Origin: an uncultured Gammaproteobacteria bacterium
GTDB taxonomy: Bacteria > Pseudomonadota > Gammaproteobacteria > Xanthomonadales > SZUA-36
Assembly: GCA_963749115.1 (NCBI GenBank)
Contig: CAVVLP010000010.1
Coordinates: 254,366-318,365, forward strand
Direction of reading: 5' to 3'
Length of the DNA stretch: 64,000 nt
Positions 8,118-14,935 of the stretch are shown here, in pieces (the first letter of the stretch is position 1; each line of letters opens with the position of its first letter). A model generated the notes under the pieces. The model was not told the DNA's origin, ran no database searches, and saw only the letters and a list, made by a program, of their open reading frames with translations. A program made the translations under genes and the position numbers.

Positions 8118-8134
8118 GGTCTGTACCTCGATCC

Positions 8135-9007
8135 CTATTCCTCAATGCCCACCTTCTGAAAAGTGAGCGGCGGAGCTGACCTTATTTCCAGTGCACTGGT
8201 CACATCGGTGCTGAAAGTCATTCCCGCCTCACCAAGAACCCGCCAGCATTGAATCATTACATCATTGGTGATATCCACCAGGCCGCGGCGACTGGTGCTG
8301 ATATCCACCCAGAAGAACACCTCGTAAATGATCCAACCGTCAGCAAACTGTTGGATGCTGACAAACGCCTGTGGCTCAGGCAGCACATCTTCCACCTGGC
8401 GAATCGTGTTTTGCAGAAGTGAAACAACTGCTTCAGGTTCGTCGTGGTAGGCGACCCCAATGCAAAAATTGGGACGGCGAAGTCCATCGCGGGTGTAGTT
8501 ATAAAGTTCTTCTCTGAAGATCTGTGCGCTGGGCACGAAAACGTCACAGGCATCAGCGGTACGTATATGGACAGAACGCACATCGATGGCGCGAACGGTG
8601 CCGGTCAAGCCACCCGACTTGATCAGATCACCCACTTCGAAGGGCCTGCTGAAATTCAGGAAAATTCCAGCCAGCAGGTTTTCACCGATTTCCCGAAATG
8701 CGAAACCCAATACAATCGCGACCACCCCACCGGTGGCCAACATACTGGCAGCCAGGCCTTTGAACCCCATGACACTCAGGGCAAATAACACACCAAGTAT
8801 CCGGATAGCCCACATCACCAGTCGCCGCACATAGCGCTCCTGGGCTTGCAAACGCTCGCTGCGATGCATGATGCGGGCGACCAGGTTGCTGAGTGCGCGG
8901 GCAAACAGGAAAAAGATAATCAATACAATTGCGGCGTAAATCAGTCGTGGTGAGAAACTGAGAAAGGTTTGCCAATCGGCCTGTAAACTTTCAGTGATGA
9001 ATTCCAT
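8135..9007 (-). CDS. mechanosensitive ion channel, MscS family (copy 1)
   Basis: The ORF-track 339-aa ORF is trimmed to the internal Met that matches the copy-2 start (MEFITESLQADWQTF...). TM segments followed by FEVGDLIKSGGLTGTVRAIDVRSVHIRT, a typical MscS beta-domain. Confidence 0.8.
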   Translation of the reverse strand: MEFITESLQADWQTFLSFSPRLIYAAIVLIIFFLFARALSNLVARIMHRSERLQAQERYVRRLVMWAIRILGVLFALSVMGFKGLAASMLATGGVVAIVLGFAFREIGENLLAGIFLNFSRPFEVGDLIKSGGLTGTVRAIDVRSVHIRTADACDVFVPSAQIFREELYNYTRDGLRRPNFCIGVAYHDEPEAVVSLLQNTIRQVEDVLPEPQAFVSIQQFADGWIIYEVFFWVDISTSRRGLVDITNDVMIQCWRVLGEAGMTFSTDVTSALEIRSAPPLTFQKVGIEE

Positions 9008-9110
9008 CCTGTTATTAACTCCGGCTAGTTGGAATAAATGATAGAGAATACTCTTTGTCTCAATTGCTTTTTCAGGCTTATGACCAGGGTTAGTCAACAC
9101 CATTGAAGCG

Positions 9111-9368
9111 GTGTTAATCGAGTTCATACCATGCAGTTGTCCCAATGAACTCACTTCTATCGACGATACTGAAAAAAGAGACCTGAATATACTACTATCA
9201 AACTATCCAGTTTACATTCGTGAAGCACATTACTCTGATCCCGACAATGAAGACAGAATGATTCTGGTGTGGGGTCTACTGGTTGGTGTTGATGGGAACG
9301 AGTGTGAGGGAACTTGTGATGGTGAGTTTGTCCTGCATAGAATCACCAAACACTTCGATTGTAAGTAA
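9111..9368 (+). CDS. hypothetical 85-aa protein inside the duplicated unit (copy 1)
   Basis: ORF conserved in both repeat copies (1 aa difference). GTG start, no recognisable motif. Confidence 0.25.
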   Translation: MLIEFIPCSCPNELTSIDDTEKRDLNILLSNYPVYIREAHYSDPDNEDRMILVWGLLVGVDGNECEGTCDGEFVLHRITKHFDCK

Positions 9369-9923
9369 TGATTACCAGCATTTGCGTAATACGACTGCCA
9401 AAGAATCTGGGCTTGTCAGTGACTCTTCCAATCATGATGTCGCAGGTATGCGAATACGGTGTGCTTTCAGGCAAAACTTGTGTGGATTCTAATTGCTATG
9501 TTCTTCCACATTTATTTTGGACTGGCTTGTCTGAAGCCAGCAACACTGAATTGGCTAGTCGGCACGAGGAAATAAGCGGTCATTTCTGCAATATCCCGCG
9601 AGTTCGGCTCTGGAGCAAACATCAGAAAAAATAGGGTGGATAAGATCAACGTTTGTTTTAGCATACTGTCATCCTGACTGTTAGCAAGTTCGTTACTGGA
9701 ATTTGTCCTTTACTACTACCATGCAATAATCAAGCCAGAAGAGGTATTCAACTGGAAACACGCTAACGCGCAATTAAATACCTTTTAAATACAACGTGAT
9801 ATATTGCGAACAAAGAATTTTGGGAAATTTTGCTTCAGCCAAATCTGATCGCAATTATCCAAAATATGTCAGAAAAACAGACCAAAATTGTCATCCACAA
9901 TGAGCCGACGTCCTCTACGATCC

Positions 9924-10796
9924 CTATTCCTCAATGCCCACCTTCTGAAAAGTGAGCGGCGGAGCTGACCTTATTTCCAGTGCACTGGTCACATCGGTGC
10001 TGAAAGTCATTCCCGCCTCCCTAAGAACCCGCCAGCATTGAATCATTACATCATTGGTGATATCCACCAGGCCGCGGCGACTGGTGCTGATATCCACCCA
10101 GAAGAACACCTCGTAAACGATCCAACCGTCAGCAAACTGTTGGATGCTGACAAACGCCTGTGGCTCAGGCAGCACATCTTCCACCTGGCGAATCGTGTTC
10201 TGCAGAAGTGAAACAACTGCTTCAGGTTCGTCGTGGTAGGCGACTCCAATACAAAAATTGGGTCGGCGGAGTCCATCGCGCGTGTAGTTATAAAGTTCTT
10301 CTCTGAAGATCTGTGCGCTGGGCACGAAAACGTCACAGGCATCAGCGGTACGTATATGGACAGAACGCACATCGATGGCGCGAACGGTGCCGGTCAAACC
10401 ACCCGATTTGATCAGATCACCCACTTCGAAGGGCCTGCTGAAATTCAGGAAAATTCCAGCCAGCAGGTTTTCACCGATTTCCCGAAATGCGAAACCCAAT
10501 ACAATCGCGACCACCCCACCGGTGGCCAACATACTGGCAGCCAGGCCTTTGAACCCCATGACACTCAGGGCAAATAACACACCAAGTATCCGGATAGCCC
10601 ATATCACCAGACGCCGCACATAGCGCTCCTGGGCTTGCAAACGCTCACTGCGATGCATGATGCGGGCGACCAGGTTGCTGAGTGCGCGGGCAACCAGGAA
10701 AAAGATAATCAATACAATTGCGGCGTAAATCAGTCGTGGTGAGAAACTGAGAAAGGTTTGCCAATCGGCCTGTAAACTTTCAGTGATGAATTCCAT
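9924..10796 (-). CDS. mechanosensitive ion channel, MscS family (copy 2)
   Basis: 290 aa. Differs from copy 1 at 4 residues (F/V, M/I, I/V, G/R). Confidence 0.85.
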   Translation of the reverse strand: MEFITESLQADWQTFLSFSPRLIYAAIVLIIFFLVARALSNLVARIMHRSERLQAQERYVRRLVIWAIRILGVLFALSVMGFKGLAASMLATGGVVAIVLGFAFREIGENLLAGIFLNFSRPFEVGDLIKSGGLTGTVRAIDVRSVHIRTADACDVFVPSAQIFREELYNYTRDGLRRPNFCIGVAYHDEPEAVVSLLQNTIRQVEDVLPEPQAFVSIQQFADGWIVYEVFFWVDISTSRRGLVDITNDVMIQCWRVLREAGMTFSTDVTSALEIRSAPPLTFQKVGIEE

Positions 10797-10899
10797 CCTG
10801 TTATTAACTCCGGCTAGTTGGAATAAATGTTAGAGAATACTCTTTGTCTCAATTGCTCTTTCAGGCTTATGACCAGGGTTAGTCAACACCATTGAAGCG

Positions 10900-11157
10900 G
10901 TGTTAATCGAGTTCATACCATGCAGTTGTCCCAATGAACTCACTTCTATCGACGATACTGAAAAAAGAGACCTGAATATACTACTATCAAACTATCCAGT
11001 TTACATTCGTGAAGCACATTACTCTGATCCCGACAATGAAGACAGAATGATTCTGGTGTGGGGTCTATTGGTTGGTGTTGATGGGAACGAGTGTGAGGGA
11101 ACTTGTGATGGTGAGTTTGTCCTGCATAGAATCACCAAACACTTCGATGGTAAGTAA
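10900..11157 (+). CDS. hypothetical 85-aa protein inside the duplicated unit (copy 2)
   Basis: Duplicate of 9111-9368. Confidence 0.25.
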   Translation: MLIEFIPCSCPNELTSIDDTEKRDLNILLSNYPVYIREAHYSDPDNEDRMILVWGLLVGVDGNECEGTCDGEFVLHRITKHFDGK

Positions 11158-12060
11158 TGATTACCAGCATTTGCGTACTACGACCGCCAAAGAACTTGGA
11201 CTTGCCAGTGACTCTTCTAATCATGATGTCGCAGGTATGCGAATACAGTGTGCTTTCAGGCAAAACTTGTGTGGATTCTAATTGCTATGTTCTTCCACAT
11301 TTATTTTGACTGGCTTGTCTGAAGCCAGCAACACTGATTGGCCAGTCGGCACGAGGAAATAAGCGGTCATTTCTGCAATATCACGCGAGTTCGGCTCTGG
11401 AGCCATCATCAGAAAAAAGAGGGTGGATAAGATCAATGTTTGTTTTAGCATACTGTCATCCTGACTGTTAGCAAGTTCGTTACTGGAATTTGTTCTTTAC
11501 TTACTAACATGCAATAATCAAGCCAGAAGAGGTATTCAACTGGAAACACGCTAACGTACAATTAAATCCCTTTTAAATACAACGTGATATATTGCGAACA
11601 AAAAATTGTGGGGAAAATTTTCTTCAGCCAAATCTGATCGCAATTATCCAAAATATGTCAGAAAAACAGACCAAAATTGTCATCCACAATGAGCCGACGT
11701 CCTCTATCCATTGACCCACATCAATACCACTCGCCTGGTTGTGCGTGTGCCTGTGGGCTGGGATGAGTGAAGATTTACCATGAAACGACTTGCAGAACCC
11801 TTTGTTTTAAGTGGCGCGCCCGCCAGGATTACTCGTCCCATACCCCAGGGCACCCTCTCGACCGGTTCCCGGTCTCACCTTGTCCCTGAGACTCGCCCCT
11901 TCGGGTTTGTCGCTGCGCGACTGCATGAAAATTCGCTCATTGTGCAGGGATGCACAGGTGCCGTGAAGCACAGGATGTGCGGGAACGGCCCTGACGTAGT
12001 TTCGAACCTGGCGCGTGCCGCGCGAGAACCCAATCCCGATACCGGGACACACGAAAATAG

Positions 12061-12092
12061 AAAAAGCCACCCAAAGGTGACTTTTTCTATTT
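12061..12092 (-). terminator. rho-independent terminator copy (between units 2 and 1)
   Basis: Minus strand: AAAAAGTCACC-TTTG-GGTGGCTTTTT followed by a T-rich tail. Confidence 0.6.
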
Positions 12093-12248
12093 TGGCGCGC
12101 CCGACAGGATTACTCGTCCCATCCCTGGGACTCGCCCCTTCGGGGTTTGTCGCTTTGCGACTGCATTAAAATTCGTTCCCGACGAATTTTTCGAACCTGG
12201 CGCGTGCCGCGCGAGAACCCAATCCCAAACCGGGACACACGAAAATAG

Positions 12249-12280
12249 AAAAAGCCACCCAAAGGTGACTTTTTCTATTT
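12249..12280 (-). terminator. rho-independent terminator copy (between units 3 and 2)
   Basis: Same hairpin as 12061-12092. Confidence 0.6.
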
Positions 12281-12433
12281 TGGCGCGCCCGACAGGATTA
12301 CTCGTCCCATCCCTGGGACTCGCCCCTTCGGGGCTCTCGCTTTGCGGCGGCACTAAAATTCGCTCCCGGCGAATTTGTCGAACCTGGCGCGTGCCGCGCG
12401 AGAACCCAATCCGATATCGGGACACACGAAAAT

Positions 12434-12467
12434 AAAAAAAGCCACCTATAGGTGACTTTTTCTATTT
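12434..12467 (-). terminator. rho-independent terminator directly after tRNA-Arg
   Basis: Minus strand: AAAAAGTCACC-TATA-GGTGGCTTTTTTT. Same stem as the two copies, different loop. Confidence 0.7.
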
Positions 12468-12544
12468 TGGCGCGCCCGACAGGATTCGAACCTGTGACCC
12501 CTGCCTTCGGAGGGCAGTACTCTATCCAGCTGAGCTACGGGCGC
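12468..12544 (-). tRNA. tRNA-Arg (anticodon CCG)
   Basis: Minus strand GCGCCCGTAGCTCAGCTGGATAGAGTACTGCCCTCCGAAGGCAGGGGTCACAGGTTCGAATCCTGTCGGGCGCGCCA. It folds by hand into a cloverleaf with 7-bp acceptor stem, anticodon loop CTCCGAA, T-loop TTCGAAT and encoded CCA. Confidence 0.95.
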
Positions 12545-12686
12545 TTTTTAATCGCGTTGCGTAGTTTAGCTGCTTTGATGGAATAAGGAAACGTAACTTT
12601 GCTTCCGCCTACCCGATGATACGGCTATACTATTCGCCCTTCAGAGGGCCGGATTTGGCGGAGTCCAAGACGGTAAATTCCAGATT

Positions 12687-13190
12687 TTGAGGTGTAGTGT
12701 GGAAGAACAAACCGATAACGTGTTTATTAAGAATTTCAGTATCGTCCTGGTCTTGCTGATTGTGTTTACGTTCAGCATTGCTTTTCTTGCAAGGGATGTT
12801 GGCTTCAAAGATGACAGTGCCAACAACCCCAGTCGTATGACGACCACTGAAGAGCGTATTAAGCCGGTTGCCGATGTTTTCATGGGTGAAGCGGGTGCTG
12901 CCGCTATTCAGGAAGCTGCATCTTCATCGGTATCGGAAATGAAAGTTGCATTTGACGGTAGTCTTGATGCGCGAAATGATTTATGGCAGCGTGTGCGCGG
13001 TCTGTCATGCACCGGTGCAGCCGGCGCGCCGATACCGGGCTCACCATTAATGGTAGAGCGCGCAGGAAAAGGCGTGGATATGTTGACCCAGAACGCTATC
13101 AACGGCTTGAATGCCATGCCGGCACGCGGCGGGCGTGCCGACCTGTCGGATGAGCAGGTTCGTGTGATAGTCGAATACATGATTCAGTAG
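12687..13190 (+). CDS. membrane-anchored cytochrome c5-like protein; haem motif is out of frame in the ORF as given
   Basis: C-terminal TGAAGAPIPGS...NAINGLNAMPARGGRADLSDEQVRVIVEYM resembles class I c5-type cytochromes. CAVCH is encoded at 12994-13008 in the +1 frame. N-terminal TM anchor present. Confidence 0.65.
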   Translation: MRCSVEEQTDNVFIKNFSIVLVLLIVFTFSIAFLARDVGFKDDSANNPSRMTTTEERIKPVADVFMGEAGAAAIQEAASSSVSEMKVAFDGSLDARNDLWQRVRGLSCTGAAGAPIPGSPLMVERAGKGVDMLTQNAINGLNAMPARGGRADLSDEQVRVIVEYMIQ

Positions 13191-13195
13191 GATCT

Positions 13196-14935
13196 GTGGT
13201 GATCCGCGGAAACCATAAAACGCCGCTATATGCGGTGTTTTTTTGTGCCGTTTTAACTGCCTGCACGGCGACTCAATCACCGCCGGATACCAGTCTGGTG
13301 CAATGTCCCGGGCGGACTTCACCAATCGCCATTGTGCAGGGTGCCGGTAGCCAATCACCGATGCAGGGCCAGCAGGTTACTGTCCAGGGAATAGTTACGC
13401 TGATTCAAAACGATATGGGTCTGTACGTGGAAGAACCCGCTTCCGATGTAGACCGTTACACCTCAAACGCAGTTTTTATTCAAAGTGACAATCCGGCGGG
13501 TGGAATCGAACCCGGCACATTGATCGCTGTAAGCGGAACCGTTACCGAGATAGGTGATGAACGTGATCCTTTAACGGCGTTAACAGACATTACCCAACTG
13601 GTTCAATGTTCATCCGGTCACACCCTGCCTTTAACCGATGTCTCCCTGCCGCTTGACGGAGCGGGCCGTGAATCAATCGAGGGTATGCGCATCCGTATAA
13701 ACGATACCCTGGTGGTCACCGATGTCTATCAATTTCAGCAGGGTAAATTCACACTCAGCGCTAACGGGTTTCAGTACGTACCCACCGAAGTGATGAAACC
13801 GGGTCCCGCTACCGCTGATCTGCTTGCGCGGAACAGGGCTTCTGCCCTACCCGTTTTGTTACCGGAAAGCATGGAGTTTCCCGCGATGCTGGTGGGTGGC
13901 ACATCGGTAGATCATGTACAGGGCGTATTGGCCCATGATGGACGGGGCAAGCGTCTTACACTGCAGTCAATCTCAAGCTTTTCCGAGCCAAATATCGCAA
14001 CACCCGGGAATGCTTCCGCTGGCTCTTTGCGTGTGGTGGGTATGAACCTGCACAATTATTTTAACGGTGACGGCAAAGGGCAGGGTTTCCCCACCCCAAG
14101 AGGTGCTGAGACCTATGATGAATTTCAACAACAGCGTGCTCGCATCGGTGCCGCCATCGGTACCCTCGACCCGCATGTTCTGGCTGTGATGGAACTCGAA
14201 AACGATGGGTTCGGCCCGAATAGTGCCGCACAGGATTTTATCCAACTGGCCAATGAAACAAGCCAACACAGCTGGGCAGCAACCCGGCCCGTTGATGACA
14301 ATACCGGAAGCGACAAGATAGCCGTCGGGTTGTTTTATCGTACGGACCTGCTCAAAGCGATCGGTCCCTCACATACACTGGGTGGTCCGGAGTTCGAACG
14401 GAGTCGTCAACCCCAGGCACAGTTATTTCAGCGCCTTCCGGATGGGGAAACCCTGCTGATCGTTATCAACCACCTCAAGTCCAAGGGTTCCTGCCCCGAG
14501 TCCGGTAAAGATGCCAACCAGCGGGATGGCCAGGGATGCTGGAACGCCATACGGCGGTCATCCGCAGAGAAAATGTCGGCCTGGGCCAAAGAGGTTGCCG
14601 TATCCGCGGGAACCAGCAACATCCTGATCCTGGGTGATATGAACGCCTATCGGAATGAGGACCCGATCGGTGCAATCCGGGACGCCGGGTTCACGGAGTT
14701 AATGGAGAGAGACCGGCAGGCAACCTATAGTTTTGTTTATTCCGGTCAGCGCGGTACGCTGGATTACGCGTTTACCTCTGATGCCTTGCTTGAAAACGTG
14801 CTGCAGGCCTACATCTGGCACGTCAATGCTGCCTTCCCGGCGAAAATGGAATTACCGAAACCGTGGCTGAGATTTTCAGATCATGACCCGGTGGTCGTCG
14901 AATTGCGCATACGCCAATCTAAAACCTCGGATTGA
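13196..14935 (+). CDS. ExeM/NucH-family extracellular endonuclease (lipoprotein; endonuclease/exonuclease/phosphatase fold)
   Basis: 579 aa. Lipobox LTAC. IAIVQGAGSQSPMQGQQVTVQGIVT N-terminal domain, and C-terminal LRVVGMNLHNYF...ILGDMNAY...SDHDPVVVEL EEP motifs. Confidence 0.8.
   Translation: MVIRGNHKTPLYAVFFCAVLTACTATQSPPDTSLVQCPGRTSPIAIVQGAGSQSPMQGQQVTVQGIVTLIQNDMGLYVEEPASDVDRYTSNAVFIQSDNPAGGIEPGTLIAVSGTVTEIGDERDPLTALTDITQLVQCSSGHTLPLTDVSLPLDGAGRESIEGMRIRINDTLVVTDVYQFQQGKFTLSANGFQYVPTEVMKPGPATADLLARNRASALPVLLPESMEFPAMLVGGTSVDHVQGVLAHDGRGKRLTLQSISSFSEPNIATPGNASAGSLRVVGMNLHNYFNGDGKGQGFPTPRGAETYDEFQQQRARIGAAIGTLDPHVLAVMELENDGFGPNSAAQDFIQLANETSQHSWAATRPVDDNTGSDKIAVGLFYRTDLLKAIGPSHTLGGPEFERSRQPQAQLFQRLPDGETLLIVINHLKSKGSCPESGKDANQRDGQGCWNAIRRSSAEKMSAWAKEVAVSAGTSNILILGDMNAYRNEDPIGAIRDAGFTELMERDRQATYSFVYSGQRGTLDYAFTSDALLENVLQAYIWHVNAAFPAKMELPKPWLRFSDHDPVVVELRIRQSKTSD

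Follow-up and report, generated by a model that had tools for sequence, protein, structure and literature searches.

A 64,000-nucleotide (nt) stretch of DNA from an uncultured gammaproteobacterium of the order Xanthomonadales (contig CAVVLP010000010.1, positions 254,366 to 318,365; hereafter the window) carries on its minus strand a tRNA-Arg(CCG) gene followed by three head-to-tail repeats, each of which ends in a copy of the 3′ end of that tRNA. Our comparisons indicate that the array probably consists of three copies of a divergent element of the RtT RNA family (Rfam RF00391), whose product would be an RNA with an end processed like that of a tRNA. The array adds a divergent member to a known family of structured RNAs that is widespread in Gammaproteobacteria, and no new phenomenon is involved.

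In two papers that cite Bosl and Kersten 1991 (PMC4986893, PMC7542023), the E. coli RtT RNA is described as being released from the transcripts of tyrT and other tRNA operons during tRNA processing, and a link to the cellular response when amino acids run short is reported. The sole role known to have been suggested for RtT RNAs is to modulate the stringent response. An earlier reading of the window, made from the sequence only, had listed a family of small RNAs mimicking the tRNA 3′ end among the possible explanations of the array, which is the account that the same papers give of the E. coli RtT RNA. A Xanthomonas study (PMC3300014) also detected RtT as one of a set of conserved RNAs, and differential RNA sequencing showed strong expression for the majority of this set.

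The tRNA-Arg(CCG) gene and the units behind it

The tRNA-Arg(CCG) gene, the sole tRNA gene called by ARAGORN in the window, is the donor of the 3′ end that is repeated in the array. The features identified at the locus were the following.

12468-12544, minus strand: tRNA-Arg(CCG) gene with encoded CCA (ARAGORN; Rfam tRNA model, 67.6 bits)
12281-12467, minus strand: RtT-like unit 1, 187 nt (sequence, MAFFT, profile hidden Markov model [HMM], fold)
12430-12467, minus strand: terminator-like hairpin of unit 1, right behind the tRNA (inverted repeats, RNAfold)
12408-12427, minus strand: anti-tail strand of unit 1
12385-12407, minus strand: variant 5′ domain of unit 1, with a GC hairpin
12295-12384, minus strand: core of unit 1, from GGTTCGA to GAGTAATCC
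12281-12299, minus strand: tail of unit 1, AATCC...CCA
12093-12280, minus strand: RtT-like unit 2, 188 nt (sequence, MAFFT, profile HMM, fold)
12243-12280, minus strand: copy of the hairpin heading unit 2
12221-12240, minus strand: anti-tail strand of unit 2
12107-12197, minus strand: core of unit 2
12093-12111, minus strand: tail of unit 2
11812-12092, minus strand: RtT-like unit 3, 281 nt, degenerate (alignment and sequence)
12055-12092, minus strand: copy of the hairpin heading unit 3
about 11939-11999: insertion or replacement of about 61 nt in unit 3, by which the 5′ strand of hairpin H1 is destroyed
11842-11883: insertion of 42 nt in unit 3, in the loop of hairpin H3
11812-11830, minus strand: tail of unit 3, with one mismatch

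Unit 1 begins at the base that follows the CCA of the tRNA, and its core begins 83 nt after the CCA. Tandem Repeats Finder described positions 12000-12486 as 2.6 copies of a 187-nt period, with matches at 94%, and the repeat search and the MAFFT alignment yielded the same three head-to-tail registers. The three methods thus agree with the sequence-only reading, which had placed three tandem units of 187, 188 and 281 nt behind the tRNA, each ending in the tRNA 3′ end. Units 1 and 2 share 89% identity; the single tail mismatch and the two insertions that had been ascribed to unit 3 were borne out by the alignment and the sequence.

The terminal copy in each unit covers the last 17-19 nt of the tRNA, beginning in the 3′ half of the T loop and ending with CCA. 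The 17-mer TCCTGTCGGGCGCGCCA occurred four times in the window, where 0.19 copies were expected by chance: besides the tRNA itself, units 1 and 2 have perfect copies and unit 3 has a copy with a single mismatch. The full 19-nt tail is the same in units 1 and 2, and CAGGTTCGA is present in each of the three units. The head of unit 2 matches the trailer of the tRNA without a difference for 18 nt past the CCA. No additional copy of the unit was found elsewhere in the window by repeat search, motif search or profile HMM. An array of tRNA pseudogenes was considered and discarded: apart from the two halves of the T loop and the 3′ strand nothing in the units is tRNA-like, and ARAGORN called no tRNA in them.

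The hairpin that heads each unit is arranged as an A tract, a GUCACC/GGUGGC stem and a U tract. Its stem comprises 17 bp when the A and U tracts are included, with RNAfold energies of -18.4 and -21.9 kcal/mol. A promoter and terminator scan of positions 11500-12900 called neither kind of signal; since the scan's own rules did not call these hairpins, we use the word terminator as an inference from their shape.

Kinship with the RtT RNA

The tyrT-tyrV locus of E. coli K-12 (locus L001), whose 178-bp repeats (rttR/tpr region) were the first examples of this RNA module to be noticed, was used for comparison, and the RF00391 model scored four copies in it at 133-137 bits. The E. coli units and those of the window have the same ordered landmarks: AGGTTCGA, two small hairpins, CCCGAAGGGCGA, a hairpin, GAGTAATCC and the tRNA 3′ end. 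At the level of motifs the common order is GGTTCGA, two hairpins, CCC(C)GAA(G)GGGCGA, a hairpin and GAGTAATCC; GGTTCGA, CCCGAAGGGCGA and GAGTAATCC are all found in this order in units 1 and 2. A scan pattern, GGTTCGA-N30-60-CCGAAGGG-N10-40-GAGTAATCC, was designed from the window and E. coli and was applied to contigs representing one genome per species. The pattern, which imposes nothing about tRNAs, matched at least 120 loci, nearly all of them in Gammaproteobacteria, and the family counts given below were drawn from the loci listed.

Since the anchor motifs are built into the pattern, the rest of the sequence was tested separately by means of a profile HMM and decoys. The model was prepared from 134 family units from which the subtype of the window (the window itself, L022, L034 and L075) had been excluded. 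When the window was searched, unit 1 scored 50.7 bits (E = 6.8e-15) and unit 2 scored 44.3 bits (E = 6.2e-13); unit 3 was recovered only as two fragments (E = 0.08 and 0.14), and there was no other match. One thousand decoys that kept the three anchors and had the intervening sequence shuffled scored 12.9 ± 5.0 bits, with a maximum of 33.7. The core of unit 2 is 60% identical to E. coli RtT, 68% to the unit at L033, about 70% to units at tRNA-Gln or tRNA-Arg genes in other metagenome-assembled genomes (MAGs) and 94.5% to L022. L033, from an Ectothiorhodospiraceae MAG, is an Rfam-positive RtT (54.8 bits) located behind a tRNA-Arg(CCG) gene with the same 3′ end, and it forms a bridge between the window units and RtT.

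The 178-bp repeat of E. coli tyrT, which the sequence-only reading had named as a precedent, is therefore a true homologue by shared motifs, HMM score and core identity. It is not the only close precedent, as had been supposed, because Rfam already recognises elements at Ser, Tyr and Arg tRNAs outside the enterobacteria.

The window units and E. coli RtT share the position of the tRNA, upstream on the same strand, a frequent tandem arrangement, and the core motifs and hairpins. In both, the last 19 nt or so of the cognate tRNA, CCA included, end the unit, and a 5′ strand pairs with the T-stem/acceptor part of this tail. They differ in that the tail is derived from tRNA-Arg(CCG) in the window and from tRNA-Tyr in E. 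coli, and in that GGAT-GA-GAAGC/GAACC of E. coli is replaced in the window by GGATT-GGGTTC and a GCGCG-GCA-CGCGC hairpin. Furthermore, the outer helix has 17 bp in the window as opposed to about 10 bp, each window unit carries a copy of the hairpin resembling an intrinsic terminator, and the window units are not detected by the Rfam model. Two Rfam-positive loci outside the Enterobacterales, L033 and L036 (three tandem units at a tRNA-Ser gene of Amphritea), were also compared. The association with a tRNA is the same, tandem arrays occur there too and L033 shares the tRNA 3′ end, whereas these loci have the canonical GGATGAGAACC 5′ motif and core identities to the window of about 59-68%.

Predicted fold and pairing of the tail

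RNAalifold, applied to a MAFFT alignment of 115 units, found no more than two of the helices, owing to the many gaps of the alignment, and alignment-free tests were therefore used. In 121 of 140 units, the segment from GGTTCGA to CCGAAGGG formed a pair of hairpins (131 distinct sequences, mean z of -2.6), and the one from CCGAAGGG to GAGTAATCC formed a single hairpin in 133 of 140 (105 distinct sequences). Double compensatory changes at H3 pairs were seen in 20-41 sequences of the MAFFT alignment. The lengths of the C and G runs around GAA covary, with 106 units having three of each, 31 having four of each and only three being unbalanced; in the window these sites are at 12141-12151 and 12328-12338. 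This covariation favours a local CCC(C)-GAA-(G)GGG hairpin over the UUCG:CGAA pairing of the Rfam consensus structure.

The anti-tail strand, which lies upstream of the core, is complementary to the tail of its own unit. The duplex between the two had a mean energy of -16.3 kcal/mol, compared with -13.1 kcal/mol for non-cognate tails, and of 86 units 78% paired better in the cognate combination (Wilcoxon p = 1e-9). Where the common motif GGAT-NN-GAACC was present (58 units), the six positions after ATCC were paired in 64-81%, compared with 46-66% upon permutation of the tails; at most one in 500 permutations reached the observed value. In the window, the anti-tail GUGUG-U-CCCGAUA-UC-GGAUU is predicted to pair with AAUCC-UGUCGGG-CGCGC over 17 bp, five of them G:U, leaving CA alone unpaired.

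The minimum-energy fold of unit 1 includes this 17-bp helix (z = -3.25). The fold of unit 2 comprises the outer helix, H1, H2, the CCCC-GAA-GGGG hairpin and H3 (z = -2.1), and all of these elements are present in the fold of unit 1 as well. Between the two units, H1 shows a compensatory change from C-G to U-A. The predicted structure is a long helix resembling the acceptor/T-stem stack of a tRNA, which would close a junction of several hairpins.

Distribution of the family and origin of the tail

The RtT family spans most gammaproteobacterial orders and at least 10 tRNA isotypes, namely Tyr, Lys, Gln, Ser, Arg (several isoacceptors), Val, Thr, Pro, Glu and Met. The matches listed included Enterobacterales, Marinobacter, Thioalkalivibrio, Amphritea, Endozoicomonas, Kangiella, Salinisphaera, Steroidobacteraceae and many MAGs. 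Among these matches, 89 first units had a tRNA gene upstream in the same orientation, at a distance of 25-90 nt, and 65 of the 89 were identical to their own tRNA, after GAGTA, from ATCC of the T loop through CCA. Tandem arrays of 2-5 units were found at about 20 other loci among them. At loci with a single unit, the identity to the tRNA usually ends 0-5 nt past the CCA.

On the other side of the core, only 0-2 more bases to the left of GGTTCGA match the tRNA, which identifies GGTTCGA as part of the constant core and the tail as the host-specific portion. It had been noticed from the sequence that GGTTCGA opens each unit body of the window, and this was correct; its interpretation as a copy of the host T arm did not hold, since the motif is constant in the family and just those 0-2 further T-stem bases track the tRNA. 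No statement of the cognate-tail rule across isotypes was found in the literature searched, in which older work is thinly covered, and the other family-wide regularities were likewise not found stated in it.

A few loci depart from the general arrangement. One Ewingella genome has three RtT copies that Rfam detects at 51-55 bits (L013, 6630-6758; L026, 2684-2799; L087, 1275-1404) and that have no tRNA nearby; their tails are unlike a tRNA 3′ end. At L081, L082, L083 and L101, Rfam-negative RtT-like cores with truncated, non-cognate tails lie about 50 nt upstream of tRNA-Ser. On an IMG/VR contig classed as viral (L006, 12216-12508) there is a tandem pair of RtT-like units whose tail is that of tRNA-Lys. 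Six loci, L051, L084, L075, L048, L040 and L079, are in contigs labelled as Paenibacillus (426 bp, with an E. coli-like tRNA-Tyr tail), Halobacteria, Desulfobacula, Gemmatimonadales, Auribacterota and Zetaproteobacteria; these labels are likely to reflect contamination or mis-binned gammaproteobacterial contigs.

The subtype of the window, its relatives and its neighbourhood

A metagenome scan with the subtype motif GCGCGGNACGCGCCAGGTTCGA identified 17 contigs. They carry one or two copies of the subtype, and many of them end inside a unit. In 11 of the 11 contigs that include a tRNA gene, tRNA-Arg(CCG) or tRNA-Arg(CCT) is found about 68 nt upstream. The question of whether the unit always follows tRNA-Arg(CCG), raised when the array was first noticed, can thus be answered, for these 11 contigs, in the affirmative for tRNA-Arg but not for the CCG isoacceptor. 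The same subtype is located behind tRNA-Arg(CCT) at L022, which has two units, and at L034, L075, L128, L133, L137, L140 and L143. The 3′ half of that tRNA is identical to that of the tRNA-Arg(CCG) of the window, and the isoacceptors therefore share tail and element. The subtype is kept at about 80-90% identity across several species.

The array is surrounded by genes for an MscS-type channel, a cytochrome c, a nuclease and AcpH. The nuclease has a 97% identical counterpart in a MAG named 'Lysobacterales bacterium', on a contig with 98% DNA identity to the window. In a relative at 76% protein identity, the same tRNA, the hairpin and the start of a unit are followed by the end of the contig. 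A further relative at 72% protein identity (L005, 4200-5290) has an IS481-type insertion in the hairpin behind tRNA-Arg(CCG), and no RtT-like unit was found at that gene. Short-read contigs of close relatives (L002, L003 and L004) stop at or inside the tRNA/unit region.

The MscS-type mechanosensitive channel gene lies in a tandem duplication of about 1789 bp (8129-9917 and 9918-11706, 94-99% identity), which begins 105 nt beyond the last RtT-like unit. Its second copy is split in two open reading frames (10830-10943 and 9924-10796), suggesting a frameshifted pseudogene or a sequencing error.

Proposed expression and growth of the array

Read-through from the tRNA promoter would transcribe the units. 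Each unit ends like a tRNA, and for this reason we propose, by analogy, that the enzymes of tRNA 3′-end maturation could excise it, giving discrete RNAs of about 150-190 nt. The copies of the terminator-like hairpin may attenuate expression along the array.

One initial unit may have given rise to the array through unequal crossing-over, or through slippage during replication, the two sites involved being the tRNA 3′ end with its trailer and the copy at the unit end. Unequal crossing-over between the repeated segments of tail plus terminator is the most likely course. Repeated unequal recombination, one of the explanations offered by the sequence-only reading, is indeed the most economical route. 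The tail-plus-trailer segments are identical over 36 nt. Unit 3, the distal one, would be in decay.

Weighing of the alternatives

Several observations weigh against an explanation of the array as RtT elements that yield RNA. With an E-value cut-off of 1 the RF00391 model found nothing in 11000-13500, and relaxing the cut-off to 10 for 11780-12480 brought no match either, so that the Rfam scan proposed when the array was first described came out negative for RtT. The 5′ domain of the window units is without the usual GGAT-GA-GAACC motif, and the anchor motifs do not count as independent evidence, given that the scan pattern was derived from the window and E. coli. With respect to expression, the strong terminator-like hairpin that precedes every unit may leave read-through slight, and no promoter was recognised in 11500-12900. 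The element also appears dispensable, because unit 3 is broken and L005 has no unit.

The failure of the Rfam model is probably due to the difference in the 5′ domain. The gathering threshold of RF00391, 45 bits, is an operational and not a biological criterion. The model recognised 8 of 18 non-enterobacterial loci bearing the core (beside Ser, Tyr and Arg tRNAs) and missed the other 10, and the canonical-looking units at L112 and L122 were missed as well. The RtT family is hence already broader than tyrT, and the curated Rfam model under-detects it. Rfam scans of the window gave weak chance matches only, for example to SpF41 and microRNA families, and when all complete E. coli genomes were searched with the array by blastn, no match was obtained.

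The main rival explanation accepts the homology, but in it the units of the window are silent DNA, that is, a selfish or neutral repeat derived from RtT that was expanded by crossing-over, is now decaying and gives rise to no RNA past the tRNA terminator. The hairpin with its U tract before each unit, the disruption of unit 3 by two insertions and a tail mismatch, and the relative without units are as expected from such a repeat, and so is the variation in copy number among related contigs and among Erwinia strains (PMC7542023). On the other hand, units 1 and 2 retain every helix, one of them (H1) through a compensatory change, and the subtype is well conserved across species. G:U pairs keep a helix in RNA and not in duplex DNA, and the anti-tail helix is retained through such pairs, which are relevant only in RNA. 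Silent DNA is accordingly possible, but we regard it as rather unlikely.

It is also conceivable that the element acts at the level of DNA, by extruding hairpins, as a recombination hot spot for the duplication or loss of tRNA genes, or as decoy attB copies. Mini-hairpins of the CGAAG type are very stable in single-stranded DNA, and units are found between duplicated tRNA genes in tyrT-tyrV and in the Lys/Val tRNA cluster of Serratia. The maintenance of helices through G:U pairs and an orientation that is always that of the tRNA speak against this possibility, which we consider very unlikely.

Tyrosine integrases that insert in tRNA genes use blocks of the kind that extends from the T loop to CCA. 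The block repeated here, together with 0-5 nt, is of that kind. The sequence-only reading had listed scars of serial integration and excision at a tRNA attB; the attB would here be that of tRNA-Arg, and each copy of the tRNA end would be a leftover attR or attL site. The array does share with attL/attR repeats the direct repetition of the tRNA segment from T loop to CCA. However, its body is a conserved structured module present at many tRNAs of several isotypes (at least 120 loci), no integrase, island genes or cargo were found within or beside the array, and the core lies inside a split T loop, which is not the product of an att crossover. The suggestion is thus unsupported and highly improbable. 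An assembly artefact is equally improbable: short-read contigs of close relatives do break in the region, but the units differ from each other and unit 3 has unique insertions, and independent contigs have two copies of the subtype motif, as does L022 with its two units.

A dispersed repetitive extragenic palindromic (REP) element or miniature inverted-repeat transposable element (MITE) was rejected. The window has no copy outside the array and the subtype stands behind tRNA-Arg wherever a tRNA is present on the contig, so that the units are not dispersed copies unrelated to tRNA genes, an outcome that the sequence-only reading had named as one that would overturn it. Like REP, BIME, ERIC and MITE sequences, the units are short, structured, multicopy and variable in copy number; unlike them, they have a single orientation at tRNA genes and their ends are copies of the host tRNA instead of fixed terminal repeats. 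A divergent RtT-family element that gives rise to a tRNA-end-processed RNA remains our preferred explanation.

Possible relocation between tRNA genes and significance

The identification accounts for an odd array, which consists of elements of the RtT type and is neither a set of integration scars nor a representative of an unknown class. It also indicates that much of the family escapes the Rfam model, including every member of the window subtype. Arrays of this kind explain the breaks of short-read assemblies at such tRNA genes. The locus itself is of modest interest, and the family-wide regularities are of somewhat more: the sequence of the tail, and to some extent that of the 5′ strand, follows the host tRNA, and the tail/anti-tail rule, the local CCC-GAA-GGG hairpin and natural variants like the present one could inform experimental work and an improved covariance model.

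The nearest core at another locus was at a tRNA of the same isotype for 45 of 83 units, where 16 ± 4 were expected, and at a different isotype for 38 of 83, with similarity scores of up to 0.7. The tail is cognate in about three quarters of the first units among the matches listed. From the nearest-core counts it follows that cores are mostly inherited with their tRNA and appear to have repeatedly moved to other tRNA genes, where they have a new cognate tail. We tentatively propose, as a possibility well short of an even chance, that RtT cores relocate between tRNA genes and that each time they acquire the 3′ end of the new host tRNA and a matching anti-tail. On either side of the core stand the invariant halves of the T loop (GGTTCGA and AATCC), and these might, speculatively, be the substrate for such exchanges. 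If relocation is correct, RtT would be a previously unformulated tRNA-gene-tracking element that could spread by recombination inside the T-loop sequence, which is universally conserved, and the variant in the window would be a distinct sublineage specialised on tRNA-Arg(CCG/CCT), with a 17-bp mimic of the acceptor/T-stem and a terminator of its own.

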